Source: a virus (lineage: Duplodnaviria; Heunggongvirae; Uroviricota; Caudoviricetes). From it: 64,000 nt of DNA. The stretch lies in the IMG/VR virus record IMGVR_UViG_3300012956_000001, positions 153,730 to 217,729 of that record; one strand, written 5' to 3'. How positions within the stretch are numbered: position 1 is the stretch's first letter; each line of letters starts with the position of its first letter. The notes under the pieces were generated by a model. That model did not search any database and was not told the origin of the DNA. It saw only the letters and a program-made list of their open reading frames with translations. The translations under genes and the position numbers were made by a program. Positions 41,477 to 59,541 of this stretch are shown piece by piece.

Positions 41477-42058
41477 ATGACAACATCAGAAATTGTTACT
41501 CCTGCTGTAACTAAGCCACCCAGAGATGGTTGGCTACCCAAGGATCAACGTAAGAAGATACTGTTGTTAAGTGACGATCTCCGCATGCCGAGTGGCGTTG
41601 GCGTTATGTCCAAGGAAATCGTTTCTCAAACATGTCATCGACTAAACTGGGTTCAACTGGGTGCTGCTATCAACCATCCAGAGGTAGGTAAGGGTGTGGA
41701 TGTATCAGAATCGTTGAGTGCTGAAGTGGGCGTTGAAGACACGTACCTTCGTGTGTTTCCCTACAACGGATATGGTGACCCGGGCATTCTTCGTTGGTTG
41801 TTGAAGACGGAAAAGCCCGATGCCATTATGCACTTTACCGATCCTCGCTTCTGGGGATGGCTCTATCAGATGGAACACGAAATTCGTAGAGAAATTCCAA
41901 TTACATATTTGCACGTTTGGGACGATGTACCATTCCCCCGATATAACAGAGATTTCTATAGATCGTGTGATGCCATTTTTAGCATTTCTAAGCAAACACA
42001 TAATATCGTAAAGCAGGTTGTAGGTGTTGAAAATGTTGAATCCATTAAAGTGTATTGA
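41477..42058 (+). CDS. glycosyltransferase family 4 (GT-B), N-terminal half; ends at in-frame TGA
   Basis: KILLLSDDLRMPSGVGV resembles GT4 N-terminal Rossmann; same frame as 42065 ORF. Confidence 0.5.
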   Translation: MTTSEIVTPAVTKPPRDGWLPKDQRKKILLLSDDLRMPSGVGVMSKEIVSQTCHRLNWVQLGAAINHPEVGKGVDVSESLSAEVGVEDTYLRVFPYNGYGDPGILRWLLKTEKPDAIMHFTDPRFWGWLYQMEHEIRREIPITYLHVWDDVPFPRYNRDFYRSCDAIFSISKQTHNIVKQVVGVENVESIKVY

Positions 42059-42064
42059 GGATAT

Positions 42065-42985
42065 ATGCCACAACCAAAGCGTGAACATGATGAATCCAAG
42101 TTAAAAATTGCGTATATCCCACACGGCGTAGATTCAAATCTGTGGAAGCGTCTCACCACAGAAGAAGAACTGAAGGCCGCAGCAGAAGTACGTACCAGAA
42201 TGTTTGGTGCTGATGCTGACAAGGTTAAGTTCGTTGTACTATACAACAACCGAAATATTCGTCGTAAGATGACGGGTGATGTAATTTTGGCATATCAACG
42301 ATTCCTAGAAAAGCTTACACCACAAGAACGTGATGCATGCAGATTGCTATTTCATACGGCTCCTGTGGACGACAATGGTACCGACCTCTTTGCTGTTCTC
42401 CGCGATCTTGCACCAGAGGTTAAGGCCATATTCTCCACAGATCGTGTGTCCACAGAAGATATGGTGAAGATTTACCATAACTGTGATGTGGTCATCAATC
42501 TGGCGTCGAACGAAGGCTTTGGTATAGGAACACTGGAAGCGATCATGTCAGAGAAGATGATCGTTGCTAATGTCACCGGCGGACTTCAAGATCAGATGGG
42601 TTTTGTAGACGAAGATGGTAACTCATTAGACGCTGATGTACATTACAATGCAGAATGGAGCACCAACGCCGATGGCACATATCGTGAACATGGTGAGTGG
42701 GTAGTTCCTGTATTTCCAAACAACCGTGCCTTGATCGGGTCACCTCCAACCCCATACATCTTCGATGATCGTTGTGATTGGCGTGACGCAGCTGATGCAC
42801 TACACGAAGTATACAAGCTTGGACCAGAGGAACGAGCCCGTCGAGGCAAGCTAGGTCGTGAATGGGCTATGAAGCCTTCCGTGGGCATGACGGCCGAAGA
42901 GATGGGCCAACGACTATTAAAGGCATTTGATAATGTCTTTACCACATGGACGCCAAGAAAGTCATTTGGCATTTACAAGGCATAA
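42065..42985 (+). CDS. glycosyltransferase family 4, C-terminal donor-binding half
   Basis: VINLASNEGFGIGTLEAIMSEKMIVANVTGG matches GT4 E-x7-E region. Confidence 0.65.
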   Translation: MPQPKREHDESKLKIAYIPHGVDSNLWKRLTTEEELKAAAEVRTRMFGADADKVKFVVLYNNRNIRRKMTGDVILAYQRFLEKLTPQERDACRLLFHTAPVDDNGTDLFAVLRDLAPEVKAIFSTDRVSTEDMVKIYHNCDVVINLASNEGFGIGTLEAIMSEKMIVANVTGGLQDQMGFVDEDGNSLDADVHYNAEWSTNADGTYREHGEWVVPVFPNNRALIGSPPTPYIFDDRCDWRDAADALHEVYKLGPEERARRGKLGREWAMKPSVGMTAEEMGQRLLKAFDNVFTTWTPRKSFGIYKA

Positions 42986-43280
42986 TATGACAGACAAACT
43001 AACTCCCGTGATGGAAGAGCTTCAACCTGTATTGGATAGCTTTTTGAAGATACACATCAATCAGCCATTGACAGATGAACTGAAAGAAATCCTAGTTCAT
43101 CTATTGGACGCCAAACTCACCGACGCAGGTTACACAGATCGACTGATTCGTGTTACAGAAGCGTTACCTGGCGAACCAACGATGATTATGGTGTTTACCA
43201 GAAATGACAATGATAAGGCAGAGAACAAGATTACAGCTACTACAATTTCTATTAGAGATACTATAGATGGGGACATTTGA
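42927..43280 (+). CDS. hypothetical protein
   Basis: 117-aa ORF. Confidence 0.3.
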   Translation: MIMSLPHGRQESHLAFTRHNMTDKLTPVMEELQPVLDSFLKIHINQPLTDELKEILVHLLDAKLTDAGYTDRLIRVTEALPGEPTMIMVFTRNDNDKAENKITATTISIRDTIDGDI

Positions 43281-44635
43281 TAATGAATAAACCGATGTGT
43301 ATAATTCAAAGCCCACTAGAAACACGTTCTGGCTATGGTGACATGGCCCGAGATATCGCACGTCATATTATTGAGTTGGATCTATATGATGTAAAGCTTG
43401 TTAGTTTGCCGTGGGGTGCCACGCCAATGAATGCACTAGATCCGGTCAAGGATATAGAGCTCATCAAGCGAATTGCACAACCACCAGTTCAGCTGCCCCG
43501 TCAGCCGGAATTGTTTATTCAGATTTCTGTACCAAATGAATTTCAACCAATCGGTAAGTACAATATTGGCATTACGGCTGGTATTGAAACCACACTAGTA
43601 TCGTTACCGTGGATTCAAGGTTGTAACCGAATGAATGCCATTTGGACGATCTCACAACACTCGAAGGAAGTGTTGATGAACACCACCATAGAAGAAAAGG
43701 ATCAATCGGGTCGAGTCACTGCGACAACAAAGTTAAACGTACCAATTGACATTTTACACAATTGTATACATCCAGACATTATCAAGAAGATTACCGTAGA
43801 AGAAATTTCTGATCCGGTACGATCTGTGATGAGCAATGTAAAGGAAAAGTTTGCTTATCTGTTTGTTGGTCATTGGCTCCGTGGTAACATGGGCGAGGAT
43901 CGAAAGAATGTTGGTCTATTAATTAAAATCTTCTGTGAGACATTCAAGACGACTTCCTCCGTGAATCGACCGGCTCTTATACTAAAGACCTCAGGCGCCG
44001 GATTCAGCATCCTCGACCGAGAAGATTGTTTGAACAAGATTCAACAAATTCGTGGTAGTGTGGGTCCGAACTGTCCAAACGTATACTTGCTTCACGGCGA
44101 ACTGTCTGATTCAGAAATGAATCAATTGTACAATCACCCAAAGGTTAAGGCACACGTTAGCTTTACGAAGGGTGAGGGCTTCGGCCGTCCACTTCTAGAG
44201 GCTACCATAAGTCAAAAGCCAGTAATTGCATCTAATTGGTCAGGCCATCTAGACTTCTTAAATGTTGATGAAGCCATATTGGTTCCTGGCGAATTACGGC
44301 CTGTAGAGCCGGGTGCTGTCTGGGAGAACGTCATCATTCCACAGTCGGCATGGTTTAACGTGGACCCCAACAATGCCGCGTCAGCATTGATGCATGTGTT
44401 TAAGCGATATGATCAATTCTTGCTACCAGCCAAGAGGCTGGCCAAGAAGAATCTTGAACAGTTCTCGTACGAGGCCATTAAGAAGCAGACAGCTGATCTA
44501 TTGGCCAAGTATGTACCGGCATTCGTCATGGAAGTACCTGTCAATCTGCCTACCTTAAAGAAGCTTGGCGGCAAGCCCGCACAACCTACCGTCTTACCTA
44601 CACTAAAGAAGATTGTTGCAAATGAAGAAAACTAA
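43277..44635 (+). CDS. glycosyltransferase family 4
   Basis: SFTKGEGFGRPLLEATISQKPVIASNWSG GT4 signature; 452 aa. Confidence 0.7.
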   Translation: MIMNKPMCIIQSPLETRSGYGDMARDIARHIIELDLYDVKLVSLPWGATPMNALDPVKDIELIKRIAQPPVQLPRQPELFIQISVPNEFQPIGKYNIGITAGIETTLVSLPWIQGCNRMNAIWTISQHSKEVLMNTTIEEKDQSGRVTATTKLNVPIDILHNCIHPDIIKKITVEEISDPVRSVMSNVKEKFAYLFVGHWLRGNMGEDRKNVGLLIKIFCETFKTTSSVNRPALILKTSGAGFSILDREDCLNKIQQIRGSVGPNCPNVYLLHGELSDSEMNQLYNHPKVKAHVSFTKGEGFGRPLLEATISQKPVIASNWSGHLDFLNVDEAILVPGELRPVEPGAVWENVIIPQSAWFNVDPNNAASALMHVFKRYDQFLLPAKRLAKKNLEQFSYEAIKKQTADLLAKYVPAFVMEVPVNLPTLKKLGGKPAQPTVLPTLKKIVANEEN

Positions 44636-45041
44636 GCTTCCACTTCAAAGTGCTAAGCTCGAATCTGAAAGTGCCCAACACTTGGCAAGTCACAGATCGT
44701 ATATGTCAAATGCAACAAAGATTACTCCAAAGCAAATCTCGGTGGGCGATGTAATTCAGTTCATGTATGACGGCGAACAGCGAACGGTCTATGTGATGAA
44801 TCCAGATTGGGCAATGAAGTTACACGGACTGTCCATGAAGGCAATTGATCGCAGAACATTGATGGTTGAAGTCGTAGCTAAGTCAGATCTGTATAAGAGT
44901 CCACAAGACTTCTATACACGCGTACTAAGTCAAGGTCCGGTGAGTAAAACAGATTCGTATAGAACGTATGATCTCAGAAAGATGGGCAACATCATGAAGG
45001 TTGAATATCAAATCGATGAACGGGGTCGTGAAGAACTATGA
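44613..45041 (+). CDS. hypothetical protein
   Basis: 142-aa ORF. Confidence 0.3.
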   Translation: MLQMKKTKLPLQSAKLESESAQHLASHRSYMSNATKITPKQISVGDVIQFMYDGEQRTVYVMNPDWAMKLHGLSMKAIDRRTLMVEVVAKSDLYKSPQDFYTRVLSQGPVSKTDSYRTYDLRKMGNIMKVEYQIDERGREEL

Positions 45042-45778
45042 TCAATGTCATATATCGGTTGAGTGACAACGGATACAACAAGCCCAAGTTTCCTAATGCA
45101 ACAAAACTGCACTGCTTTAAAAACATGTTGTCTCAATTTCATCCAAATTGGGTACATGTCTTTGTAGACGAAACTAATTTGTTGCCGGAAACTAGACAGG
45201 CAATGATCGATGAGAACAATCATTGGTGGGCAGAATACGGAGATCAAATTGGAGCCGGATTTGGACACTTTGAATTCTACACGGCTGGTAGTTCAGCAGC
45301 CAGTTGGCGACATGTTTTTGACTTTGCACTAAATAAGTTTCGACCGGAAGAATATGTGTACTTTGTGGAAGATGATTATCTACATCTGGAAGGTGCACGG
45401 TCAATATTAACACAGGGATTACAAATTGCAGATTACGTTAGTCTGTACGATCATAATGACAAGTACATACCAGCATCCCAAGGTGGCAATCCGTTCATTG
45501 ATGAAGATGCAGGCGAAGTAACCAAGGTATTTCGTACCAAAGATGTACACTGGAAGCTTACCAATAGTACCACGATGACGTTTGCTACTACGGTTGCTCA
45601 ACTACGTGAAGATGAGGCCACTTGGCGTGAATTTACACAAGGATCACATCCAAACGATTTCTCTTGTTTTTTGAAACTACGTGAACTTGGTCGATCATTG
45701 ATTACACCCATCCCCGGCTATTCCACACACTGCGAACCACGCTGGGCAAGTCCTGGCACTGATTGGGATGTCGTATGA
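45038..45778 (+). CDS. putative GT-A-fold glycosyltransferase
   Basis: YVYFVEDDYLH DxD-like motif; context. Confidence 0.35.
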   Translation: MINVIYRLSDNGYNKPKFPNATKLHCFKNMLSQFHPNWVHVFVDETNLLPETRQAMIDENNHWWAEYGDQIGAGFGHFEFYTAGSSAASWRHVFDFALNKFRPEEYVYFVEDDYLHLEGARSILTQGLQIADYVSLYDHNDKYIPASQGGNPFIDEDAGEVTKVFRTKDVHWKLTNSTTMTFATTVAQLREDEATWREFTQGSHPNDFSCFLKLRELGRSLITPIPGYSTHCEPRWASPGTDWDVV

Positions 45779-46629
45779 AAGATTTGTTAATTGGTGCAGC
45801 TGATCTATATGATTGGTCCAAGATAAAGGTATGGGCCACTTCAGCACGCCAAAGTGGCTTTACGGGTGATATTGTATTGTTGACGTATCGCGTTGCACCG
45901 GATGTAGTTGAACATGCCAGTAAGCTAGGCGTCGATGTATATCAAATTGAGCACAATTCCTTTGGTGGTCCGATTACACATAATGATAAGGGGCGAGATA
46001 CCCAGGCACATCAGTTGCGATTCTTTCATATGTGGCAATTCTTATCCACTGATGACAAATATCAAGAATATGATCGTATTATAACTACCGATGTTCGGGA
46101 TGTGTGGTTTCAAAAAAATCCGTCAGATTGGTTAGATAAACATCGTGATATATTATGTAAGTCGCCACTGGTAGCATCATCAGAGGGCATCAAATATAAA
46201 GATGAACCGTGGGGCGCTGATAACATGATTAACGGATTTGGGCCTTTAGTATGGAATGTTGCAAAAGAATGGACCATATACAACGTTGGAGTGGTGGCTG
46301 GACAATCATTTCGTATGATGGGGTTGTTCTTAACGTTGTATCACATGACTACTGGTAGATACATCCCATCAGATCAATCTGCATATAACATATTAACCAA
46401 TCAAACCATGGCTACTCAATTTATGAACACTATGCACATTGATGATTGGGCATGCCAATGTGGTACGGTTCTAGATCCACAAAAATCTCATTTGGAATTG
46501 TCTGACCAACGACCAATCGTATTACCAGATGGTCATGTCATAAATCCTAGTGGTGAAGAATACCACATTGTACATCAGTATGATCGAGTTCCAAAAATAC
46601 TTTCCTTAGTGGAGTCGTTATATGCCTGA
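45775..46629 (+). CDS. hypothetical protein, possible nucleotide-sugar transferase (DxD: TTDVRDVWF)
   Basis: ATGA overlap at 45775; context in glycosylation island. Confidence 0.3.
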   Translation: MKDLLIGAADLYDWSKIKVWATSARQSGFTGDIVLLTYRVAPDVVEHASKLGVDVYQIEHNSFGGPITHNDKGRDTQAHQLRFFHMWQFLSTDDKYQEYDRIITTDVRDVWFQKNPSDWLDKHRDILCKSPLVASSEGIKYKDEPWGADNMINGFGPLVWNVAKEWTIYNVGVVAGQSFRMMGLFLTLYHMTTGRYIPSDQSAYNILTNQTMATQFMNTMHIDDWACQCGTVLDPQKSHLELSDQRPIVLPDGHVINPSGEEYHIVHQYDRVPKILSLVESLYA

Positions 46630-46744
46630 TATACCACCCAAGCCTAAGCCACCAGAACTAGAAGATCTCCCCGATCACATCAGTCCGTGGTTCGCCCTAT
46701 TATTTGTAATTCCCTTTGTCATCCTCATCATTCGGTCTCTATGA
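46622..46744 (+). CDS. 40-aa Pro-rich peptide with C-terminal transmembrane anchor, not in ORF track
   Basis: MPDIPPKPKPPELEDLPDHISPWFALLFVIPFVILIIRSL; start overlaps upstream stop, stop overlaps downstream ATG (cTATGAt). Confidence 0.35.
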   Translation: MPDIPPKPKPPELEDLPDHISPWFALLFVIPFVILIIRSL

Positions 46745-48210
46745 TATCCATCGTTGTATGTTATCGTAATCGTGAAGAACATCTCAAAAAGTTTGTACCG
46801 CATATGCGACAATTCTTTAGAGATACACCACACGAAATCATCATTGTTGAACAGGCCGACAATCTTCGGTTCCGCCGTGGCAATCTATTGAACGAAGGCG
46901 TTCGTATTGCCAAGGGCGATGTGATTGCTTTGCATGACGTAGATTACCTACCAACGGAAGGTACATCATATTGGCAGGATGGAACCGATGTACACCGACC
47001 AGCTGGCCGTGTAGAATTTATTTTGATGGACGGGTCGCCCCGACCAGAAGAAGATATTCCATCTGGCTATCGTCACTTTAAAGATAAGGTAGATGATGAT
47101 TTCTTTGGCGCTGTGACGGTGTTTAGCAAAGAAGCAATTTGGAAAATTAACGGATTTAACCCACTATATGACGGATGGGGATTAGAAGATGCAGATCTCA
47201 GACAAAGGATTGCTGCCAGCGGATTGCACGTGTCCAGCGGACACAACCTGTTCCAGGCCTTGCCGCATGCGGACTCATTCCCAGGCCTCAGCGACGAGGG
47301 GTTCCAGCATAACCAAAGGATATTTTCCCAGGCAGATGAATTTCGACTACTTGGCATTAACACAACCTTCCCAACCGTCATGGCTCGATCAGATAAGGCT
47401 AAGGAATGGGGCGTGGATCAATGGATTGAAGCAACGAATTTTACGGCGGTTTCGCCGGAATTAACAGCGTACATGACCGTAGACAACGTATCTGAGATGT
47501 ACGAAGATACACCTGATGTGCATACATTAATCTGGAAGAACTTCAAGACGCTTGTCAACGCAACGCCACATTTAAAAGAACATCGTGATTGGGTTGTTCA
47601 AAATAACTGGGGCTATGGCAATCGAGCATTTCACTGGATGTGGAATATTCTAATTCAGCAGGCACCACAAAACTTCAAGTTCTTGGAGATTGGTGTATTC
47701 AAGGGTCAAACGATTAGCTTGATTTCCATGTTAAATGGAATTCACCGGAAGAACGGTACAGTATACGGCGTCACTCCATTGAGTAAGTCTGGTGACAAGT
47801 ATGCAACACACCCAGATATTAATTACGAAGAATGTATACAACACATCTATGGTCAATTTAAGCTTGATGCATCCGATCTCAATATCATTGAAGGATACAG
47901 TAATGACCAAGCAATTATTGACATATCCACACAAGAAGGCCCGTATGATTTTGTATATGTGGATGGCTGTCATGACTATGATGTAGTCGTTTCCGACCTA
48001 GAGAAATATGGCGATATGCTCCGGGTTGGTGGATACTTAGTAGTAGACGATAGTAGTAATAATCTACAGATTCCAGATGGACTAATTCGCATGAATTGGC
48101 GTGGACTGCCAGATGTTACGAAGGCCGTTGAGGATGTACTAGAAACAAATTCCAAATTCACTCATCGGTTTGCCGTCGGGCACAATCGAATCTTTCAGAG
48201 GATTGCATGA
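46741..48210 (+). CDS. bifunctional glycosyltransferase (GT-A, beta-4-galactosyltransferase-like) / class I SAM methyltransferase
   Basis: N-term SIVVCYRNREEHL...IIIVEQ...FRRGNLLNEG...HDVDYLP (GT-A DxD); C-term LEIGVFKGQT and DFVYVDGCHDYD (Methyltransf_24-like). Confidence 0.6.
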   Translation: MISIVVCYRNREEHLKKFVPHMRQFFRDTPHEIIIVEQADNLRFRRGNLLNEGVRIAKGDVIALHDVDYLPTEGTSYWQDGTDVHRPAGRVEFILMDGSPRPEEDIPSGYRHFKDKVDDDFFGAVTVFSKEAIWKINGFNPLYDGWGLEDADLRQRIAASGLHVSSGHNLFQALPHADSFPGLSDEGFQHNQRIFSQADEFRLLGINTTFPTVMARSDKAKEWGVDQWIEATNFTAVSPELTAYMTVDNVSEMYEDTPDVHTLIWKNFKTLVNATPHLKEHRDWVVQNNWGYGNRAFHWMWNILIQQAPQNFKFLEIGVFKGQTISLISMLNGIHRKNGTVYGVTPLSKSGDKYATHPDINYEECIQHIYGQFKLDASDLNIIEGYSNDQAIIDISTQEGPYDFVYVDGCHDYDVVVSDLEKYGDMLRVGGYLVVDDSSNNLQIPDGLIRMNWRGLPDVTKAVEDVLETNSKFTHRFAVGHNRIFQRIA

Positions 48211-48848
48211 TGCTATTACAGAAAAAGATTGCAGGTATACTTGAAGACCTAAAGGCAGGCAAGCCCGTTATTGTCGTTGACAATTATGATCGTGAAAATG
48301 AAGGCGATCTGGTCATGGCTGCTGAGAAGGTAGATGCCAAGACACTTGCATTTATTGCACGAGAAGCTCGAGGCATCATGTGCATTCCTACAGCAAAGAC
48401 CATTCTTGATAGACTTGAAATTCCGATGAGTCCATCAAACAACAATGACAAGTTTAGTACGCCGTTTACGGTGAGTATTGATGCTCGTGATGGCGTCACA
48501 ACGGGTGTAAGCGTAGAAGATCGTATGGTTACAATTGGATTGGTGCTTGACGAAACCACCAAGCCAGAACAGTTGGCCTATCCGGGTCACCTATTCCCAC
48601 TTCGTCCTCGTCGTGGATTGCTTAAGGAACGTCAGGGACACACCGAAGCGTCGGTACAACTGTGCTTGATGGCGAAGATGAAGCCGGTTGCAATTATCTG
48701 TGAAATTATGAATAATGATGGTTCTATGGCACGCGTTCCCGATCTAGAACTATTCTCTATTGAACACAATTTGAATATGATCTCAATTGATGAAATTATA
48801 GAGTTCTGTGAACATGCTGGATGGGAGCCATCGGAGGATGTAGGCTAA
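48207..48848 (+). CDS. ribB: 3,4-dihydroxy-2-butanone-4-phosphate synthase
   Basis: VIVVDNYDRENEGDLVMAAE matches DHBP synthase signature (DDEDRENEGDL), about 213 aa as for RibB. Confidence 0.75.
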   Translation: MMLLQKKIAGILEDLKAGKPVIVVDNYDRENEGDLVMAAEKVDAKTLAFIAREARGIMCIPTAKTILDRLEIPMSPSNNNDKFSTPFTVSIDARDGVTTGVSVEDRMVTIGLVLDETTKPEQLAYPGHLFPLRPRRGLLKERQGHTEASVQLCLMAKMKPVAIICEIMNNDGSMARVPDLELFSIEHNLNMISIDEIIEFCEHAGWEPSEDVG

Positions 48849-49792
48849 TGGAAATTAATGCACGTGCATATAACACATTTGAATTACGACCAAACGGACT
48901 AATCAAAAAATCTAGTCCGACCGAACGACTTGCAGATGAAATTGGCTATTATAGAATCGTTCAACGTGACATCAACAAGTCTATATTCTTTCCACGACTT
49001 GTGGCATCGCAAATGGGCAATCCAAATTGGATTCTAATGGAACGGTACGGATACAAAAATCTGGGAGAATATCTCGTGGGCCGTGCCGGCACAGTTCCAG
49101 ACTGGACTGAATTGTACACTCAGTTGGCTATGACACTCAGCCAATTTGAAATGTTTACTGATACCCAACCGGGCAATTCAGCATACATCATTGACATGCT
49201 CATTACAAAGACCGAACGTGAAATGAAGGCGCTTGCTGATGCTCGTCCTGATTTAGCGTCGTTGTTTACACGGGACACCGTTACACTCAATGGTGTGGTA
49301 CTAACAAACTTCCACAAAATCTGGCCGGAAGTGTCCAAGTACATCATGTCGGACATGTTGGAGTATAACAGTTCTATGATTCATGGCGATATGTGCTTTA
49401 GCAATATTCTGTATGAAGATGGCATCATGAAGTTTATTGATCCTCGTGGATCATTTGGCAAAAAGGGCATCTTTGGTGACATTCGATACGATGTGGCAAA
49501 GTTGTATCACTCGGTCGATGGTGGATACGAATTCTTGATTAACGACGAATATGAATTGATCACCGTTGAAGACCAATATACATTGTATTACTCGTGCAAC
49601 AGCATTAAAGCCGCGGCTCAACAAGAGTTTGAAAGTATGTTTTTACGTGGTGCCTTTAACAAGAAGCACATTAAGATCATTGAAGGATGTATCTTTATCG
49701 GTATGGCCGCACGACACTATGATTCAACACTTAGACAAAAAGCCATGTATCTCATTGGCGTTCGTTTACTAAACGAGGCAATGAAACTATGA
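48848..49792 (+). CDS. APH/choline-kinase-family small-molecule kinase (LicA/AmgK-like)
   Basis: Brenner motif IHGDMCFSNIL and FIDPRGSFG...D; start placed at ATG 48848 (TAATG overlap). Confidence 0.65.
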   Translation: MEINARAYNTFELRPNGLIKKSSPTERLADEIGYYRIVQRDINKSIFFPRLVASQMGNPNWILMERYGYKNLGEYLVGRAGTVPDWTELYTQLAMTLSQFEMFTDTQPGNSAYIIDMLITKTEREMKALADARPDLASLFTRDTVTLNGVVLTNFHKIWPEVSKYIMSDMLEYNSSMIHGDMCFSNILYEDGIMKFIDPRGSFGKKGIFGDIRYDVAKLYHSVDGGYEFLINDEYELITVEDQYTLYYSCNSIKAAAQQEFESMFLRGAFNKKHIKIIEGCIFIGMAARHYDSTLRQKAMYLIGVRLLNEAMKL

Positions 49793-50556
49793 ACGTATTA
49801 ATCTTGATGGCCGGTGATGGTAAACGGTTTGTTGATGAAGGCATCAACATGCCAAAGCCATTGATTGAGGTAAATGGAAAGACCATTCTAGAATGGACCA
49901 CTCGTTCTATTCCGTTCATAAATCATGACAATGAAAATCCAGATGGTCTACCATCAAACCGATTGTATTTTGCTATTCGTGAAGAGCATGAGGAACAGGG
50001 CATTAGTGACAGGTTAAAGTCAATTTATGGCGATGATATCAACATCATCACGTTTAAGAAGTTGACTAATGGCAATCTTGAAACCGCATATATGTGTGCA
50101 ACATTAATAGATGAAGATGAACCTCTGCTGGTATTGGATAGCGACAACAAATATAACGATAACAACATACTAGAGACATTTGTTGAGTCGTTGGATTTTG
50201 ATCATAGCATGGTCGTGTCGTACTTTGATCCAATTGATGACAGTTCCAAGTGGGCATTTATATACACAGATGGTGCGGTTGTCAAGAAAATTGTCGAAAA
50301 AGATCCTAAGGCATTAGAACAGGGCGGTCTTCCATTGGTGGGTACATTCTGGTTTAAGACCAATAGACTGTTCTTGGATCTGTCAGAGTATATCATTGCT
50401 AATGGTTTTAAAGTAGGCACGCCTGGGAAGGAAGAATTCTATATGACACAAGTACCAGCATTACATGCTGCCAATGGCGGTGCTGTATTTGCCCACAAGG
50501 TTGATGGCGTGGTGCCGCTTGGTACTCCCGCCGATGTAGCGAAGTTCAGAGTATGA
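49789..50556 (+). CDS. sugar-phosphate nucleotidyltransferase (LicC/MurU-like, GT-A fold)
   Basis: MNVLILMAGDGKRFVDEGINMPKPLIEVNGKTILEW matches N-terminal G-x-G-x-R-x-(n)-K-P-L signature. Confidence 0.7.
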   Translation: MNVLILMAGDGKRFVDEGINMPKPLIEVNGKTILEWTTRSIPFINHDNENPDGLPSNRLYFAIREEHEEQGISDRLKSIYGDDINIITFKKLTNGNLETAYMCATLIDEDEPLLVLDSDNKYNDNNILETFVESLDFDHSMVVSYFDPIDDSSKWAFIYTDGAVVKKIVEKDPKALEQGGLPLVGTFWFKTNRLFLDLSEYIIANGFKVGTPGKEEFYMTQVPALHAANGGAVFAHKVDGVVPLGTPADVAKFRV

Positions 50557-50927
50557 AGCAACTACGACTGTGTTTTGACGTTGATGGAACTATCTGTACC
50601 AATAAAACGGGCGACGAATCTTATGAAGATGTAGTTCCGTTGCCTGGTGCTATAGAATCACTCCAAGCATTAAAAGATCAAGGCCATTACATTATTCTAC
50701 AAACTGCACGGCACATGAAAACCTACGCCGGCAACGAGGGACAAATTCTTGCACAATTTGGATATTTCTACAAGTGGTTAGAAAAATGGAATGTACCATA
50801 TGATGAAATTTACATTGGTAAGCCTCACGCAGATTTATTCATCGACGACAAAGGCAGACAACATTTAGATTGGTCACAAACATCAACTCTCATAGAAACA
50901 TTTGGAAGGTCACATGACAACGGTTAA
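50553..50927 (+). CDS. HAD-superfamily phosphatase
   Basis: CFDVDGTICT (DxDGT) motif I; small cap-less 124 aa. Confidence 0.55.
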   Translation: MKQLRLCFDVDGTICTNKTGDESYEDVVPLPGAIESLQALKDQGHYIILQTARHMKTYAGNEGQILAQFGYFYKWLEKWNVPYDEIYIGKPHADLFIDDKGRQHLDWSQTSTLIETFGRSHDNG

Positions 50928-51771
50928 GCAAACTCCACTATTCTTTTTTGACACAGCAGATCTAGATGTAATCCAAAACGTATGGGATAGATTGGGACCA
51001 TACGTTCCAGACGAAGCAATGGCCGGCATCACCACCAATCCAAGTGCATTGGCAAAGGTCAACTGTGATGATCTTGACAAGTTTGAAACACTTACATACA
51101 AGTTGGCTCGATTTGTAAGCAGCGTACGCAAGAATGATATCAATTTTGAAACTGGTACGGTACACGTTCAATTGCCAAGTTCCACGGCAACAGAAGCTGA
51201 GTTGGTGGCATGGACCAACTACGTTAAGGATCTCGGCGACGGCCGGTGTCATATTGCTATGAAAATTCCACCGTACAAGCATATTCTGGACATTGTAAGT
51301 GCACGTAGCCTAGAAGAAAAGGTACAGATCAATGTCACTGGTACCTCAGACGCGGCCACGGCCCTACGGTGTTTCAGCTATCCACAGGTTTCGTATGTAA
51401 GCATCATTCCAGGCAGAATGGAAGAAGTGGGCATTGATGCAACCAAGCACCTAAATTTGGTACATCAACGTTACAAGGCCTTCGCCGGTGAACAGTATGT
51501 AATTGCTGGTTCCATGCGAACGGTTGATGGATTAAAGCGATCCATTGCTGCTGGTTGTGTACCAACCATTGGTCAACGTGTGTGGGATGCTATGACCGAT
51601 CAAGACTATAAAGAATTTGCATCGTGGTGGTCCACCATCACACCGACCAGTTCGTACATTGATGATATTCCTCAGATTGATCAAACTAACATTGATCTAA
51701 CAGATGCTTTCTTCAAGCAAATGGACGAGTTGGGCCAGCCACTCTACAAGGCATTTGCCGCAACAGTATGA
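50914..51771 (+). CDS. transaldolase / fructose-6-phosphate aldolase family protein
   Basis: FFFDTADLDVIQ and GITTNPSAL are transaldolase-family signatures. Confidence 0.65.
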   Translation: MTTVKQTPLFFFDTADLDVIQNVWDRLGPYVPDEAMAGITTNPSALAKVNCDDLDKFETLTYKLARFVSSVRKNDINFETGTVHVQLPSSTATEAELVAWTNYVKDLGDGRCHIAMKIPPYKHILDIVSARSLEEKVQINVTGTSDAATALRCFSYPQVSYVSIIPGRMEEVGIDATKHLNLVHQRYKAFAGEQYVIAGSMRTVDGLKRSIAAGCVPTIGQRVWDAMTDQDYKEFASWWSTITPTSSYIDDIPQIDQTNIDLTDAFFKQMDELGQPLYKAFAATV

Positions 51772-52505
51772 AAATTGCTCTGTGCATGAGTGGTCATGCT
51801 AGAACCTACGCACAGACATTTGAAACGTGGCGTGATAATCTCCTGGCACACCACGATGTTGATGTATTTTTTCATGTGTGGGATACACTCGGACCAAGAA
51901 CATATGGCAGAGGAGCCCCGGGCCACTCAGGCATAGAACAAAGTGAATTACTAAATTTAGATCACTTAATTAACATATGGCATCCTACACTTGCCATCAT
52001 GGACAAGTATGTATATTTTCATCAACACTTTGATACAAAGTCTGCCAAGTGGTATCGTACCAGAGAAGCATTAGGATTACGAGACATTGATCGACCACTA
52101 GGCAATATGTCAATGTATTACAAGTGGCGTGAGTGTAACAACCTTCGACTCCGCCATGCAGAACAACATAACATCACCTACGATATGGTCATTCGGTCGA
52201 GGCCGGACATAGCATTGCGGGAACAGTTGCCAGCAGAATGTTTTCATAATAATTCGGTTACCTATATTCCTATTGCTGGGTCTTGGGCAGAAAACGAAAT
52301 TAGTGATTACATCACACTCGGCACATCCGAACAGTTAAATCACTGGTGTAGCATATACGATCAGCTGGACGAAAAGTATACTTCAGCATTAGAAAGCAAC
52401 GACTTTACAAAAGCGTTATATCCACACAAATTGTTCTACCATCACTTTGTCGATCATAACCAACCATTTAAACAGGTTCCTATTAATTGTGAGATCATTA
52501 GATGA
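51768..52505 (+). CDS. hypothetical protein, tandem paralog A
   Basis: MKIALCMSGHARTY...TF...DVFFHVWD parallels next gene. Confidence 0.4.
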   Translation: MKIALCMSGHARTYAQTFETWRDNLLAHHDVDVFFHVWDTLGPRTYGRGAPGHSGIEQSELLNLDHLINIWHPTLAIMDKYVYFHQHFDTKSAKWYRTREALGLRDIDRPLGNMSMYYKWRECNNLRLRHAEQHNITYDMVIRSRPDIALREQLPAECFHNNSVTYIPIAGSWAENEISDYITLGTSEQLNHWCSIYDQLDEKYTSALESNDFTKALYPHKLFYHHFVDHNQPFKQVPINCEIIR

Positions 52506-53224
52506 AAACTGCACTAATCCTTAGCGGACAGCCACGCTCTGTAGAAAAGACATTCCCACTTATCAAACAACACATTCTCGACATTAACCAGCCGGATGTA
52601 TTCATTCATACCTGGCGAGATGATAGATTGTGTGGCCGGTCACCTGTGTCATCCGGTGGTGTGGTGGCATCTGATCCCATTCCAGAAAACATCAACGAAA
52701 TTATCTTAAACTTGTATAATCCTGTTGCAATTAAAATTGAACGGCCGATTGAGTTTAATGAGTTCAATTTCAATGATAACAAATATCCACAGATTAAACC
52801 GAAGAATTCCCTTAGCCAGAGATATTCTGTTCGGGAGTCATTCAAGTTGTTACTAGATCACGCTGCATGGACCGACACAACTTATGATTATGTCATTCGT
52901 ATGCGGTTTGATTGGGCGATTCAAATGGACATAGATGTAACTACATTGCCAACGGACACAATCACCACACCTAACGACTGTCCACATCAAGGTGGATTGA
53001 ATGATCAATTTGCTGTGGCTCCACAACACTTAATGTTGCACTATGTTCAACTATTTGATCAAATTCCAAGATTATTTTCGTATGGTGTGCCGTTTTGTGA
53101 TGAAATTCTTCTTGGGGAACATCTACGAAGTGCCAATATTGTAGCAAATGCCATACCGATACCATATACAATTCAGCGTTCGTCAACAGGCGTTACCAAC
53201 ATTCTACATACGGATGTAATATGA
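52502..53224 (+). CDS. hypothetical protein, tandem paralog B
   Basis: MKTALILSGQPRSV...TF...DVFIHTWRD. Confidence 0.4.
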   Translation: MKTALILSGQPRSVEKTFPLIKQHILDINQPDVFIHTWRDDRLCGRSPVSSGGVVASDPIPENINEIILNLYNPVAIKIERPIEFNEFNFNDNKYPQIKPKNSLSQRYSVRESFKLLLDHAAWTDTTYDYVIRMRFDWAIQMDIDVTTLPTDTITTPNDCPHQGGLNDQFAVAPQHLMLHYVQLFDQIPRLFSYGVPFCDEILLGEHLRSANIVANAIPIPYTIQRSSTGVTNILHTDVI

Positions 53225-53952
53225 TTAAGTTGGTCGATACAAAGGACAAATACACGAATGATCAGGCGGCCAAGCAACAATTGGCTGATCTGTTTGGTGA
53301 CACCACAAAGTATACTCTAGAGTTTGATCCATTTTGGAATGAGATGGTACCTCAAGCGATCAAGATGCACAATCGTCATGGTATGGGTGAATATGCCGGA
53401 TCGGGCTGTGTGGACTATAACGAGGCTAAGGCACTATACATTTTTACTCGGCTATTGCGTCCAAAGATTGTTGTAGAACTCGGGTATGCGGGAGGCATAT
53501 CCACCAGTTTTATTGCACGTGGATTAGAAATGAATGGTGCCGGCCAAGTTCACACCGTTGATCTATCGCCAGAATACTGGGATGTATGTCCCACGTTTCA
53601 ACAGTATCGTAAACAAGAAACGATTGTACAGTATCATGCTACTGATGCTATTCAATTCTTGAAAGACACCGACGTAGCCCCGATCCTAACGTTTAGTGAT
53701 GCCACTCACGAAGAAGAACCCACTCGACAAATTGCTGAATTACTAAAAAAGAAGTGGCCTCATGCCGTACACTTATATCACGAATGGGGTATGAGTAATA
53801 AAAGTGCTGCAGAAGAACGATCCTATGTCAGCATGCAAAATTTAATTGGTACACAATATGAACGTGATGCCTTTGAGAGTGTATTTGGCGATCAATATAG
53901 ACACGGTGGATTGTATGGGTCGTGTGGCCTTGGAATTGTGATGCCTCTATGA
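53221..53952 (+). CDS. class I SAM-dependent methyltransferase (Methyltransf_24/TylF-CmcI-like)
   Basis: IVVELGYAGGIST glycine-rich SAM loop, acidic residue downstream (HTVDLS). Confidence 0.55.
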   Translation: MIKLVDTKDKYTNDQAAKQQLADLFGDTTKYTLEFDPFWNEMVPQAIKMHNRHGMGEYAGSGCVDYNEAKALYIFTRLLRPKIVVELGYAGGISTSFIARGLEMNGAGQVHTVDLSPEYWDVCPTFQQYRKQETIVQYHATDAIQFLKDTDVAPILTFSDATHEEEPTRQIAELLKKKWPHAVHLYHEWGMSNKSAAEERSYVSMQNLIGTQYERDAFESVFGDQYRHGGLYGSCGLGIVMPL

Positions 53953-54314
53953 TAATAACAAGCATTGATCCGACCGAGATAAAATCATACGCAAAGTCGT
54001 ATATAAGTGAGGTGGCGGCCACGTATTTTGAAATTCGAAAGTCGTGGGGCCCTGGCTGGAAAGTGTTCGAATCGCCCGAGGACATAGAACGTATCATATA
54101 TTATCTTATAGATAGATGTTGTGAAACACCGACTGGCAATACCATTGACACTACCGGCATAAAAGTACGTGTCCAACGAGCAATATTTACAGAAGACGCC
54201 CGTGTACACTATGACTCGAAATATCCAAAACATAGTCGTGCAGCAAACGGTAAGGGACTACAAGATTATACCAGTTTGGATATAACCTTCATTCTATCGG
54301 ATCGTACTAAGTAA
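53949..54314 (+). CDS. hypothetical protein
   Basis: ATGA overlap at 53949. Confidence 0.3.
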   Translation: MIITSIDPTEIKSYAKSYISEVAATYFEIRKSWGPGWKVFESPEDIERIIYYLIDRCCETPTGNTIDTTGIKVRVQRAIFTEDARVHYDSKYPKHSRAANGKGLQDYTSLDITFILSDRTK

Positions 54315-54354
54315 AATGTATACATCTTAACACATCTAGATTTTGTACCTCAAT

Positions 54355-54403
54355 CCGGTTAGATTTATCACGTTCCTTGTAGGACGTTTCCAAATCTAAC
54401 CGG
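54355..54403 (+). repeat. 12-bp perfect inverted repeat CCGGTTAGATTT / AAATCTAACCGG with 25-nt spacer
   Basis: seen directly upstream of SPFH lipoprotein gene. Confidence 0.55.
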
Positions 54404-54415
54404 AGTTTTTATACA

Positions 54416-55249
54416 ATGAAGTTCACACGATTTGTTCCTCTTATTGCTCTTTTGACCCTCGCGGCCTGTGAGCGGGTCGATCAGACCGAATATTGTGTAA
54501 AGACACAATACGGCAACGTCACCGATAAGGGCTTGGAGCCCGGATTGACCAATACGGCGTCTCCCGGTGTCTCGCTGACCTGTTTCTCCCTAACGGATCA
54601 AAACTTCCCTGAGAAGACGAGCGATGAAGATCCGGGCACATTGACCCTCGAAGTCCAGACGGGCGGCGGCGAACAGCCACTAACCATTGCGGTCGAAGTC
54701 AGCGCAGTATATGCATTTGATCGTGCCTCGGTCTATGATGTATTCGTTGCCAAGCGTACCGAAGATGCTGCTGAAGTAGAAGTCTTTAACAGCATTCAGG
54801 AAGGTACTCGTGCGGCCTTCGGATCGTGGACGGTTACGGAAATCTTCTCCGATCAGCGTGCCACATTGTCGGACAGCCTTCGGGCCCACATTCAACGAAA
54901 GCTTGGCAATCGTGCGATTATGAAGAACGTGTTCGTGAAGCGAATTTCCTTGCCTAAGGCCATTGAAGATGCACGAATTGCATCGGCACAACAGGCACAG
55001 ATTTTGGCGAAGGCACAACAGCAATTTGTAATTGACAGTCAGAATGCCCGTGGTGTTCTTATGAAGGCCGAGGCCGACGCCAAGGCAAACGAACTTCGTG
55101 GTCAGTCATACCAGTCAAATCCCAAGTTGCTTGACCTTGAAATCGCCAAGGCGTGGTCCGATGGATTGAAGGGTGCATGTAATGGCGCATCAACTTGTAT
55201 CATCGGTGGCCAGGCACTTGATCTCCTTCCTCTCCGAAATCGTCAATAA
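54416..55249 (+). CDS. SPFH/band-7 (stomatin-prohibitin-HflK/C-like) lipoprotein
   Basis: signal peptide with lipobox LTLAAC; Ala/Gln-rich coiled coil ...AKAQQQFVIDSQNARGVLMKAEADAKANELRGQ typical of SPFH C-terminus; GC clearly above window average. Confidence 0.7.
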   Translation: MKFTRFVPLIALLTLAACERVDQTEYCVKTQYGNVTDKGLEPGLTNTASPGVSLTCFSLTDQNFPEKTSDEDPGTLTLEVQTGGGEQPLTIAVEVSAVYAFDRASVYDVFVAKRTEDAAEVEVFNSIQEGTRAAFGSWTVTEIFSDQRATLSDSLRAHIQRKLGNRAIMKNVFVKRISLPKAIEDARIASAQQAQILAKAQQQFVIDSQNARGVLMKAEADAKANELRGQSYQSNPKLLDLEIAKAWSDGLKGACNGASTCIIGGQALDLLPLRNRQ

Positions 55250-55261
55250 TTAACGTGGAAT

Positions 55262-55284
55262 GGGGTGAGCTAATAACTCACCCC
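55262..55284 (+). terminator. hairpin GGGGTGAG-N7-CTCACCCC
   Basis: 8-bp G/C-rich stem after SPFH stop. Confidence 0.5.
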
Positions 55285-55292
55285 AACTCATA

Positions 55293-55601
55293 ATGTATAT
55301 ACTTAATGGATTTGGCGTATGGGTTGTTTTGTTGTTTGTAATATTGATGGTACTCAAGTTTGGCGGTCATGTAGTCAATGATAAAGAAAACTGGGCAGTC
55401 GGCGCAGCCGATTTGGCAGCTGAGTTTAGAGAGGCACCAATTCACACCATCGGCATTTTTGGAATTGTTAGTGTTATCGTTATTGGTGCATGGCCGATCA
55501 TTCTTACCGTAATGGCATTGGCCTTCGCGGCATTTCTCATTGGCGGGGTTCCATACATTGTATTTACCCGTACTATATCAACGCCTAAGCAGGAGAAGTA
55601 A
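55293..55601 (+). CDS. small integral membrane protein (3 predicted TM segments)
   Basis: hydrophobic stretches VWVVLLFVILMVL, IGIFGIVSVIVIGAWPIILTVMALAFAAFLIGG. Confidence 0.4.
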   Translation: MYILNGFGVWVVLLFVILMVLKFGGHVVNDKENWAVGAADLAAEFREAPIHTIGIFGIVSVIVIGAWPIILTVMALAFAAFLIGGVPYIVFTRTISTPKQEK

Positions 55602-55603
55602 TC

Positions 55604-55810
55604 ATGGTTATTTTCGCTGAACTATTTTTGTTTGCTATGGTTCTTTTTGGCGTCTTTCGGTTCTTGAAGAATGAAATTGAAATCAAGGTTCTTCGAGCAA
55701 AGAATGCCAAGCTTGAAGAGGATGTCATTGAACTTCAAAAGATTCTTCTTCAAGATGAAGTTGACGAATTTGGCAAGGCGCCAAGGGGCAAGCAAATTCT
55801 TCATGGATGA
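55604..55810 (+). CDS. single-pass membrane protein with coiled-coil tail
   Basis: MVIFAELFLFAMVLFGVF then KNEIEIKVLRAKNAKLEEDVIELQK. Confidence 0.4.
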   Translation: MVIFAELFLFAMVLFGVFRFLKNEIEIKVLRAKNAKLEEDVIELQKILLQDEVDEFGKAPRGKQILHG

Positions 55811-55813
55811 CAT

Positions 55814-56353: not shown

Positions 56354-56422
56354 TCCATTTCTACTATTTTATGATACTACTTATTAGTGGTGTTACTGGT
56401 CATAGTTTAGTGGAGAAACATC

Positions 56423-58445: not shown

Positions 58446-58454
58446 GAGGTTGGT

Positions 58455-59539: not shown

Positions 59540-59541
59540 TC

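Follow-up and report, generated by a model that had tools for sequence, protein, structure and literature searches.

A phage gene module proposed to lead from ribulose-5-phosphate to a nucleotide-activated sugar donor

Described routes to nucleotide-activated sugars

In the NDP-heptose pathway (GmhA, HldE/HddA, GmhB, and HldC/HddC), an omega-phosphosugar is phosphorylated at its anomeric position before a HAD phosphatase removes the distal phosphate and nucleotide transfer completes the activation. The same four-step logic is proposed here for a phage gene module, but the heptose kinases have a PfkB/GHMP fold whereas the phage kinase is protein-kinase-like, and the heptose pathway is fed by a SIS isomerase acting on sedoheptulose-7-phosphate whereas the phage module uses RibB, the 3,4-dihydroxy-2-butanone-4-phosphate (DHBP) synthase. 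The Afh pathway of RB69-like phages is outlined as leading from arabinose-5-phosphate via Ara-1,5-P2 and Ara-1-P to UDP-Araf (He et al. 2026, via PMC13326640), with AfhE and AfhF given as enzymes making this UDP-arabinofuranose (PMC13326640; also Lee et al. NAR 2026) and AfhF giving structural matches to GmhB (PMC13326640).

Our locus shares with the Afh pathway the ribulose-5-phosphate start, the kinase/phosphatase/nucleotidyltransferase (NTase) logic, its encoding by a phage, and the vicinity of glycosyltransferases, and its kinase and 1xpj-type HAD phosphatase are distantly homologous to the C-terminal kinase domain of AfhE (AfhE-CTD) and to AfhF, respectively. However, it appears to be fed by RibB and a variant transaldolase where the Afh pathway has an arabinose-5-phosphate isomerase (API), its kinase and NTase are separate genes and not a fusion like AfhE, its NTase has no significant similarity to the AfhE NTase domain, and no 5-hydroxycytosine synthase is found nearby in the window. 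If RibB performs its normal reaction, the product of the module would therefore not be arabinose. The closest sequence relatives of the kinase (27% to 38% identity) and the HAD phosphatase (40% to 53%) belong to uncharacterized bacterial kinase-HAD-NTase trios (Akkermansia, Legionella, Myxococcales, Planctomycetes, and others), which share the catalytic motifs and adjoin GT2, GT4, and WavE genes but come without RibB or transaldolase (66 of 80 loci).

Layout and enzymes of the module

The analyzed window is a 64-kb stretch of DNA that forms part of a jumbo-phage genome (source contig of 217,729 bp). An ORF check confirmed five translationally coupled genes on the plus strand at 48207-51771:

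48207..48848, + strand: RibB (DHBP synthase; Pfam PF00926 DHBP_synthase, 6.6e-72; TIGR00506, 210 bits, above the cutoff of 177 bits)
48848..49792, + strand: protein-kinase-like (APH/ChoK-type) sugar-phosphate kinase, 314 aa (phrog_21938, 4.5e-51)
49789..50556, + strand: sugar/alcohol-phosphate NTase, 255 aa (PF00483, 1.7e-4)
50553..50927, + strand: small HAD phosphatase (EcbF/BcbF, 1xpj, AfhF family), 124 aa (TIGR01689, 2.8e-21)
50914..51771, + strand: transaldolase/FSA-family enzyme of a phage subfamily, 285 aa (PF00923, 4.8e-12)

Start and stop codons overlap as ATGA at 48207, 49789, 50553, 51768, 52502, and 53221, as TAATG at 48848, and by 14 nt at 50914, matching the operon described in a first-pass annotation of this DNA. 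That annotation had also noted the lack of other riboflavin genes, and we likewise found none among the ~60 window ORFs profiled with Pfam, PHROGs, or NCBIfam (ORFs below ~150 aa were covered only in part); the view that this is not a riboflavin operon is supported.

The phage RibB is ~45% identical to RibBs of solved structure (8e-51 versus Vibrio cholerae RibB, VcRibB), and the VcRibB residues R38, E39, E41, D43, C68, H137, R151, H154, T155, E156, and E175 are all present in 42 cassette RibBs, among them the metal ligands Glu39 and His154 (PMC9305975). The DHBP synthase signature had been called intact before, and alignment with bona fide RibB bears this out, since no canonical catalytic residue is lost. 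Like the enzymes of riboflavin biosynthesis, it is thus a full-length family member, but it lacks RibA, RibD, RibH, and RibE as partners, is embedded among sugar-nucleotide enzymes, and is often fused to them in related loci. Compared to the nearest relatives, RibB is more conserved (75% to 80% identity) than its partner proteins (43% to 57%).

The kinase ORF spans 48821-49792 and could start at 48821, but comparison with relatives and the TAATG overlap place the true start at ATG 48848. Though it matched no Pfam family, a weak APH(3') match across the catalytic loop, homology to AfhE of phage HY126 over the entire kinase domain (BLASTP 2e-14, 23% identity), and the invariant residues K21, E31, HGDxxxxN (179-186), and D198 agree with its earlier assignment to the APH/choline-kinase fold. 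The NTase carries an N-terminal GxGxR...PKP motif and aligns to positions 3-243 (the N-terminal half) of phrog_3980, a family of NTase~RibB fusions. Its earlier description as a LicC-like enzyme stands as far as a sugar/alcohol-phosphate NTase is concerned, whereas a particular likeness to LicC is not demonstrable from the generic, weak matches to PF00483, TIGR03992, and GlmU/MurU-type enzymes. From their sequences, neither kinase nor NTase appears clearly specific for a common sugar. The HAD phosphatase, already recognized as such in the first reading, matches TIGR01689 ("capsule biosynthesis phosphatase"), PDB 1xpj (1e-16), and AfhF of HY126 (33% identity, 6e-12). Its DxDxT motif (D9, D11) is conserved across phage and bacterial members, between which we found no phage-specific conserved changes, while the kinases differ by only a few group-specific substitutions (e.g., R289 in phages versus Leu in bacteria and E125 versus Arg).

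The transaldolase ORF runs from TTG 50902 to 51771, but the start is probably ATG 50914 because an identical database protein has 285 aa; its homologues in the database number 438. In its AlphaFold model (pLDDT 91), the nearest structures are decameric TalC, fructose-6-phosphate aldolase (FSA), and sulfofructose transaldolase. With cyanophage TalC and E. coli FSA (transaldolase subfamily 5) it shares the fold (TM-score to target 0.75 to 0.80) and, as judged by sequence comparison, the Schiff-base Lys, the Asp, the donor-site Asn/Thr/Ser, and the phosphate-site Arg/Ser/Arg (invariant D13, TTNP40-43, K117, N140, T142, S163, R168, S200, and R202). However, cassette members invariably have Q86 for the catalytic Glu, as in FSA, and I165 for the Phe of transaldolases or Tyr of FSA, and they differ further in a ~60-aa C-terminal extension and in always accompanying RibB. 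Synechococcus phage S-SKS1 has, in addition, its own canonical talC in which Glu and Phe are present; together with Gln86 and Ile165, this suggests that the cassette enzyme is not a plain pentose-phosphate-pathway enzyme. The family assignment of the first-pass annotation therefore holds, but the supply or rearrangement of ketose phosphates that it proposed is weakened by the altered catalytic pair and the separate talC of S-SKS1.

The module lies within a larger set of glycan genes, preceded by a terminator-like hairpin at 40949-40972:

41477-42058 and 42065-42985, + strand: GT4 glycosyltransferase split in two ORFs
43277-44635, + strand: GT4 glycosyltransferase
44613-45041, 45038-45778, and 45763-46629, + strand: conserved unknowns
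46687..48210, + strand: fusion of a GT7-like (beta-4-GalT-like) glycosyltransferase and a Methyltransf_24/CmcI O-methyltransferase (PF13733, PF02709, PF13578, PF04989)
51768-52505 and 52502-53224, + strand: two paralogous DUF7796 proteins, predicted GT-A glycosyltransferases (weak PF25072, phrog_13607)
53221..53952, + strand: Methyltransf_24 class I methyltransferase (PF13578, 8.9e-9), its start overlapping the preceding stop
55814-56353, + strand: second Methyltransf_24
56423-57169, + strand: HNH homing endonuclease
57145-58182, + strand: SDR NDP-sugar epimerase/dehydratase
58739-59539, + strand: GT2 glycosyltransferase
59542-60087, + strand: dNMP kinase
60105-60848, + strand: HAD_2 hydrolase

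The upstream genes at 41477..46629 (PF13439, PF00534, phrog_2170) recur as the same set in the same order in relatives, the four genes from the SDR enzyme to the HAD_2 hydrolase are syntenic there as well, and the closest relatives also keep the 46687..48210 fusion gene, whose stop overlaps the RibB start, ahead of RibB. DUF7796-type genes adjoin the cassette in most loci, and a model of the 52502-53224 protein (pLDDT 93) matches GT6 and GT8 retaining glycosyltransferases with a Foldseek probability of 1.0. This GT-A fold implies a nucleotide-sugar donor and makes the DUF7796 proteins candidate users of the activated product. With these, further glycosyltransferases, and O-methyltransferases around the module, the glycosyltransferase and methyltransferase neighbors reported earlier are confirmed; S-SKS1 additionally has GDP-fucose genes and a fucosyltransferase.

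A conserved cassette with alternative feeders

S-SKS1 and more than 50 uncultivated phage contigs (50 TAL-anchored and 51 kinase-anchored, TAL being the transaldolase) carry the five functions side by side in an unchanged order. Since RibB identity among these phages drops to 38% to 47% and the contigs are independent, this arrangement is far beyond chance, and the module is essentially phage-borne and conserved. Its parts are also found covalently joined: NTase~RibB fusions occur at ~20 related loci and in phrog_3980, NTase~HAD fusions at loci L037/L062, and locus L067 (from a MAG) encodes an 817-aa RibB~NTP_transferase~kinase protein with a MobA-like NTP_transf_3 middle domain.

Among 80 kinase-anchored phage loci, RibB and TAL accompany the kinase in 51, API in 20, and neither feeder in 8, the remaining locus being truncated. 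API and the RibB/TAL pair are mutually exclusive, API-type cassettes lack TAL, and RibB alone or TAL alone was found at none of the contig-covered loci. Because the two never occur singly and API replaces both, RibB and TAL seem to be a joint feeder, as judged by this strict co-occurrence.

Proposed pathway and competing readings

We consider it likely that the five gene products work in a single NDP-activation pathway that begins with RibB chemistry, and we lean slightly toward a module that makes a nucleotide-activated sugar donor from ribulose-5-phosphate for a phage-encoded glycosylation system. Given its completely conserved catalytic residues, RibB would convert D-ribulose-5-phosphate to L-3,4-dihydroxy-2-butanone-4-phosphate (DHBP) and formate. 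Together with the variant transaldolase, it would hold the place of the arabinose-5-phosphate isomerase in the Afh pathway and make a phosphosugar. Speculatively, the transaldolase, which has kept its dihydroxyacetone donor site and phosphate site, could add a C3 unit from fructose-6-phosphate or sedoheptulose-7-phosphate to the carbonyl of DHBP, the methyl-ketone analogue of glyceraldehyde-3-phosphate, and thus yield a C-methyl-branched ketose phosphate able to cyclize. An aldol step on DHBP specifically is rather doubtful, and we know of no precedent for a transaldolase adding onto a ketone acceptor or for the activation of a 2-ketose by an anomeric kinase and NTase. The kinase would then place a phosphate on the anomeric hydroxyl, after which the small HAD phosphatase would take off the distal phosphate, relocating the phosphate by homology and analogy like AfhE/AfhF and HldE/GmhB, before the NTase would form the NDP-sugar. 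Finally, the GT-A DUF7796 enzymes, other glycosyltransferases, and O-methyltransferases may build a methylated glycan on a virion protein, a host surface structure, or DNA.

The first-pass annotation had instead suggested an NDP-activated four-carbon ketol/polyol or unusual sugar; in this version, DHBP or its reduced polyol would itself be NDP-activated as a C4 ketol donor while the transaldolase merely raises pentose-phosphate supply. A canonical RibB, the activation of simple alcohols by LicA/LicC-type pairs, and the prevalence of talC in cyanophages as a pentose-phosphate-pathway gene fit this idea, but DHBP is already phosphorylated so that the NTase alone would suffice. The conserved kinase and phosphatase therefore point to a transfer of the phosphate onto a different oxygen, which argues against a simple NDP-DHB, and a C4 2-ketose is unable to form a furanose ring with an anomeric hydroxyl. 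Considering also the altered TAL pair (Glu to Gln, Phe to Ile), the separate canonical talC of S-SKS1, and the absence of TAL from API-type cassettes, we regard a C4 donor as unlikely. What stands of the earlier proposal is that RibB and the other four enzymes act in a single pathway (by co-occurrence, fusions, translational coupling, the intact RibB active site, the AfhE/AfhF homology, and the adjoining glycosyltransferases and O-methyltransferases), while the C4 identity of the product is not established. Quite improbable in our view is that RibB and transaldolase are auxiliary metabolic genes for riboflavin and pentose-phosphate metabolism that travel with an unrelated trio making an NDP-pentofuranose (e.g., of arabinose or ribose) from host pentose-5-phosphate as in bacteria. 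Trios that lack RibB and TAL abound in bacteria, so that the trio intrinsically needs no DHBP-derived substrate, its kinase and HAD phosphatase are homologous to AfhE and AfhF, and talC is a known auxiliary gene of cyanophages. Yet RibB is fused to the NTase at ~20 loci and to an NTP-transferase-like domain and kinase at L067, and RibB and TAL are never found singly beside the kinase in the contig-covered loci and are both exclusive with API; moreover, other riboflavin genes are missing from the scanned window ORFs, the TAL active site is altered, and RibB would drain the very pentose phosphate that the trio requires.

A separate question, compatible with any of these chemistries, is whether the activated product serves DNA hypermodification, as in the arabinosylated 5-hydroxycytosine of RB69-type phages, and not a protein or surface glycan. 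The kinase and HAD phosphatase are homologous to DNA-glycosylation pathway enzymes and the cluster lies in a genome region devoted to replication and nucleotide metabolism; the dNMP kinase downstream and the QueC-like, deoxyribosyltransferase-like, and ThyX genes nearby in relatives therefore keep DNA among the possible targets. Nevertheless, it seems the less probable one, given that the 64-kb window yielded no thymidylate-synthase-like hydroxylase or hydroxymethylase, that ~ten glycosyltransferase and four O-methyltransferase domains better fit the assembly of an oligosaccharide, and that S-SKS1 has GDP-fucose and fucosyltransferase genes. We found no prior description of such a RibB-fed phage module in the literature, and we regard it as a previously undescribed form of sugar activation by kinase, phosphatase, and NTase.

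The RibB cassette and its genomic setting

The long ORFs of the window all lie on the plus strand and include a T4-type baseplate protein, gp32-like and UvsX-like proteins, a DnaB helicase, ribonucleotide reductase, family B DNA polymerase, DNA ligase, dUTPase, nicotinamide phosphoribosyltransferase, and a clamp-loader-like ATPase. The window is part of a jumbo-phage genome of 217,729 bp, and a similarity search among 50,697 deposited phage records found no relative of it at the nucleotide level. The five ORFs of interest had been placed correctly by the first-pass annotation and belong to the families named there, as judged by profile matches (Pfam, TIGR, and PHROGs); comparison with relatives shifted the starts of the kinase and transaldolase genes to 48848 and 50914, respectively:

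48207-48848, plus strand: RibB, synthase of 3,4-dihydroxy-2-butanone-4-phosphate (DHBP)
48848-49792, plus strand: kinase
49789-50556, plus strand: nucleotidyltransferase (NTase)
50553-50927, plus strand: HAD phosphatase
50914-51771, plus strand: TAL, a transaldolase/fructose-6-phosphate aldolase (FSA)-family enzyme

These genes are embedded in a row of nine, from a GT7-methyltransferase fusion at 46687 to the end of a methyltransferase gene at 53952, that overlap by 1 to 14 nucleotides, with six of the overlaps being ATGA. A strong terminator-like hairpin at 40949-40972 (10-bp stem with 6 G-C pairs and a T-rich tail) overlaps the stop of a phosphoesterase gene, with the glycan gene block immediately downstream, and is probably a transcription-unit boundary. 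Elsewhere on the same strand of the window, a NUDIX-domain protein and the nicotinamide phosphoribosyltransferase (phrog_448, 1e-163) are encoded close together (28649-31322) and jointly resemble a module for NAD+ salvage by the phage. Within 10248-12442, an ORF similar to UDP-glucose/GDP-mannose dehydrogenases (11603-12442) lacks some 70 N-terminal residues as well as the family's C-terminal domain, which may reflect truncation or rearrangement of the gene. It overlaps the stop of another ORF, of 452 aa, in which a weak DNA-polymerase-A-like stretch is the sole resemblance.

All five functions are adjacent in three independent samplings of related loci (10 RibB-anchored, 50 TAL-anchored, and 51 of 80 kinase-anchored loci), arranged either as RibB-kinase-NTase-HAD-TAL or as NTase-RibB-kinase-HAD-TAL with NTase and RibB separate or fused, and contigs from JGI, ENA, and Logan agree with these layouts. 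Among isolated phages, close homologues occur solely in Synechococcus phage S-SKS1, whose NTase-RibB fusion, annotated as DHBP synthase, precedes the kinase, HAD, and TAL homologues. Such NTase-RibB fusions (449-480 aa, the same as phrog_3980) occur in about 20 loci, and the related loci L037 and L062 encode a 369-aa NTase-HAD fusion. In one phage locus (L013, 7909-8448) a homing endonuclease gene, similar to the one in the window's own glycan cluster, is inserted between the cassette kinase and NTase. Beside the cassette, locus L014 (10828-13115) encodes a second NTase, which is IspD-like, together with proteins of 114 aa and 409 aa, the latter RuBisCO-like, and L020-L025, L049, and L059 do so too. 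This RuBisCO-like protein (PF00016, 5e-32; nearest solved relatives RLP 3nwr and form III RuBisCO) adjoins pentose-phosphate-handling enzymes in phages; it is absent from the window.

RibB and transaldolase as paired enzymes

The window RibB exceeds curated thresholds over its full length (PF00926, 241 bits with a cutoff of 26; TIGR00506, an equivalog family, 210 bits with a cutoff of 177) and aligns with Vibrio cholerae RibB (VcRibB) at 8e-51. The first-pass annotation had called for a comparison of active-site residues, since a homologue devoid of them would have spoken against its pathway, and our alignment of 42 rows (the window protein, 40 other cassette RibBs, and VcRibB) shows that the catalytic positions are retained. 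Positions R38, E39, E41, D43, C68, H137, R151, H154, T155, E156, and E175 of VcRibB keep the canonical residue in at least 95% of cases. The metal ligands of VcRibB are Glu39 and His154 (PMC9305975), with E30 and H145 as their equivalents in the window protein. The cassette RibB is therefore predicted to be catalytically intact. Its identity to the nearest relatives is 75-80%, compared to 43-57% for the partner proteins, which indicates that RibB is under stronger constraint.

To our knowledge, RibB elsewhere serves riboflavin synthesis only. The window RibB shows every property of the riboflavin-pathway enzyme that sequence can reveal, yet it sits outside a riboflavin operon: neither the about 60 window ORFs that we scanned nor the gene tables of related loci contain ribA, ribD, ribH, or ribE, and we rejected this assignment because the partner genes are absent. 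A host-derived contaminant was rejected as the source of RibB because the synteny and the RibB-NTase fusion recur across phages. Use of a longer ketose such as sedoheptulose-7-phosphate was likewise dismissed, given that every residue binding ribulose-5-phosphate (Ru5P) is conserved.

TAL matches PF00923. In two alignments, one with 14 and one with 25 family members, the Schiff-base lysine (K117) is invariant, as are D13, the TTNP motif (T40-P43), N140, T142, S163, R168, S200, and R202. The Asn/Thr/Ser set N140/T142/S163 contacts the C1 hydroxyl of the donor, while R168/S200/R202 form the phosphate site. What sets the enzyme apart is its catalytic pair, which is always Gln86 and Ile165: transaldolases have Glu and Phe instead, and FSA shares the Gln at the Glu position but has Tyr in place of Ile. 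The nearest structural matches of the AlphaFold model (pLDDT 91) are decameric TalC, FSA, and sulfofructose transaldolase. That TAL might simply be the ordinary talC of the phage was rejected because S-SKS1 has both, with a second, canonical talC (Glu and Phe) some 12 kb away from the cassette; this separate gene also argues against a role of the cassette enzyme as a simple booster of the pentose phosphate pathway. DHBP as the donor substrate of TAL was discarded as well, since the residues binding the C1 hydroxyl are kept and DHBP has a methyl group there.

The kinase-anchored phage loci reveal how RibB and TAL travel together:

Genes beside the kinase in 80 kinase-anchored phage loci
RibB and TAL beside kinase: 51/80
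Arabinose-5-phosphate isomerase (API) with AfhE-type fusion: 20/80
Neither feeder: 8/80
Contig ends before the RibB position: 1/80

Among the loci covered by their contigs, none has RibB alone or TAL alone beside the kinase. As the two never occur singly, we infer that the pair occupies the place of API, the phosphosugar supplier.

The activation trio and known sugar-nucleotide pathways

The kinase falls into no Pfam family but matches phrog_21938 (4.5e-51) and has the HGDxxxxN...D catalytic loop of the APH/choline-kinase superfamily; a PDB search with its profile gave only insignificant matches to protein-kinase N-lobes. The HAD protein is a member of TIGR01689 and of the family of PDB entry 1xpj. 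The NTase has weak matches to PF00483, GlmU, and MurU, and a PDB sequence search with it returned no match. Scanning GTDB with the kinase alignment at one genome per species yielded no fewer than 579 loci in bacteria and archaea; we inspected 80 of them. Kinase, HAD, and NTase lie side by side in 66 of these 80 without RibB and TAL, mostly among GT2, GT4, and WavE genes, and this frequent occurrence without the two enzymes suggests that the trio is a general activation module. Hosts of the bacterial trio, which is often found beside WavE-family (PF07507) and GT2/GT4 genes, include Akkermansia, Legionella, Myxococcales, Planctomycetes, Bacteroidota, and CPR, and one Nitrosopumilus MAG also carries the trio (L067-L146).

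The exceptions among the inspected GTDB loci are two MAG contigs, L067 and L069, with the full five-function cassette. The neighbours of L069 are phage-like, whereas L067 has 60% G+C and is flanked by bacterial-looking sugar-modifying genes, the only such context of the cassette that we found. An 817-aa fusion in L067 joins a DHBP-synthase domain, an NTP-transferase-like domain, and the kinase. This contig of a Planctomycetota MAG (JACQVS010000240.1, 1974-13054) also encodes a split transketolase, an APH-family kinase, a methyltransferase, a Zn-dependent dehydrogenase, and an RmlD-like reductase next to the cassette. Both cassettes came from the kinase-anchored scan; a pattern scan of 185,579 GTDB genomes confirmed no member of the TAL subfamily. 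RibB and TAL are thus an add-on to the trio that is essentially restricted to phages.

A close known parallel is the UDP-arabinofuranose (Afh) pathway of RB69-like phages. According to PMC13326640 (citing He et al. 2026), API converts Ru5P to arabinose-5-phosphate, AfhE phosphorylates this to the 1,5-bisphosphate, AfhF removes a phosphate to leave arabinose-1-phosphate, and the N-terminal domain of AfhE forms UDP-arabinofuranose. By homology, the cassette appears to share an AfhE-like anomeric kinase domain and an AfhF-like HAD. The C-terminal kinase domain of AfhE from phage HY126 aligns with the window kinase over its full length (BLASTP, 2e-14) with the K, E, HGDxxxxN, and D motifs in common, and AfhF is 33% identical to the window HAD (6e-12), both being of the 1xpj family. 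However, API is found neither in the window nor in any RibB-TAL locus and is confined to the 20 AfhE-type loci among the 80 kinase-anchored phage loci. The NTase is fused to the kinase in AfhE but encoded separately in the window, where its similarity to the AfhE N-terminal domain is not significant (G-loop match only, E 0.22). The 64-kb window also has no base hydroxylase of the thymidylate-synthase-like 5-hydroxycytosine synthase type. Without API, an AfhE-type NTase, and, within the window, a 5-hydroxycytosine synthase, the cassette does not belong to the Afh pathway, but by analogy it would work in a like manner to the Afh and NDP-heptose pathways.

Proposed chemistry and glycan context

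RibB would convert Ru5P to DHBP and formate, and the trio would then shift a phosphate and add a nucleotide, like the Afh and heptose enzymes; placing TAL as the connection between them is speculative. DHBP is a four-carbon 2-ketone that cannot form a furanose and has its sole primary hydroxyl phosphorylated, which makes it a poor direct substrate for an anomeric kinase. The NDP-activated four-carbon ketol envisaged by the first-pass annotation fits poorly with the gene set, because a simple NDP-dihydroxybutanone would require neither kinase nor phosphatase. The normal transaldolase acceptor is glyceraldehyde-3-phosphate, and DHBP is its methyl-ketone analogue with the phosphate equally far from the carbonyl. 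Since the donor and phosphate sites of TAL are kept and only two residues near the bond-forming carbons are changed, we tentatively propose, as a possibility that we consider rather unlikely, that TAL adds a dihydroxyacetone unit to the DHBP carbonyl (a ketone) by an aldol reaction. The product would be a C-methyl-branched ketose phosphate able to cyclise, which could then pass through the relay of kinase, phosphatase, and NTase. That RibB and a re-tooled TAL build such a branched sugar phosphate for nucleotide activation by this relay is, as a whole, likewise rather unlikely. We know of no precedent for aldol addition of the TAL type to the DHBP ketone, nor of an aldolase route from a riboflavin intermediate to a branched sugar nucleotide anywhere else in biology.

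The two genes right after TAL are paralogues of DUF7796, a type present alongside the cassette in most loci. The model of one of them (pLDDT 93) has a GT-A Rossmann-like fold that is most like retaining GT6 and GT8 enzymes (Foldseek probability 1.0 to both, TM-score about 0.45-0.5). Region 41477-60848 further encodes three GT4-type genes, the GT7-like methyltransferase fusion, a GT2, three further Methyltransf_24 proteins, an SDR epimerase/dehydratase, a dNMP kinase, and a HAD_2 hydrolase, and S-SKS1 additionally has GDP-fucose genes. This region looks like one for the assembly of a methylated oligosaccharide, and its candidate acceptors are virion proteins, components of the host envelope, and DNA.

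Several details of this region are worth recording. One GT4 (GT-B) is split into two ORFs, with the N-terminal Rossmann domain at 41477-42058 and the C-terminal part at 42065-42985, 6 nt apart; the identical split in all close relatives suggests that it may be a genuine two-subunit glycosyltransferase and not a sequencing error. The neighbouring ORFs at 42927 and 43277 share the opening sequence catTTGataATG, and translation of both may in fact begin at an ATG, two codons past the listed TTG. The HNH/NUMOD-type homing endonuclease gene within the cluster (56423-57169) overlaps the start of the epimerase gene with its end. Immediately after the last glycosyltransferase gene come those of the dNMP kinase (phrog_139, 7e-30) and the HAD_2 hydrolase (59542-60848), which relatives have in synteny; in phages, dNMP kinases often go with non-canonical nucleotides.

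Our literature searches on RibB or DHBP in the context of phage glycans, sugar nucleotides, or AMGs, on S-SKS1, and on bisphosphate/HAD/NTase pathways found no description of this cassette. There is a realistic chance of new chemistry and a new sugar. A second conserved role in which RibB catalyses the committed step towards a sugar nucleotide would be enzymologically new and would probably bring a new sugar with it. Sugar nucleotides made by phages are the basis of DNA hypermodification and virion glycosylation, which set sensitivity to restriction, other defences, and immune recognition. The cassette is widespread in uncultivated aquatic jumbo phages, and its presence in the cultivable cyanophage S-SKS1 makes it directly testable. 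Beyond phages, our findings draw attention to the uncharacterised kinase-HAD-NTase trio that hundreds of bacterial species carry, Akkermansia and Legionella among them. If the branched-sugar reading is true, dozens of aquatic phages would use a riboflavin intermediate as a carbohydrate building block.
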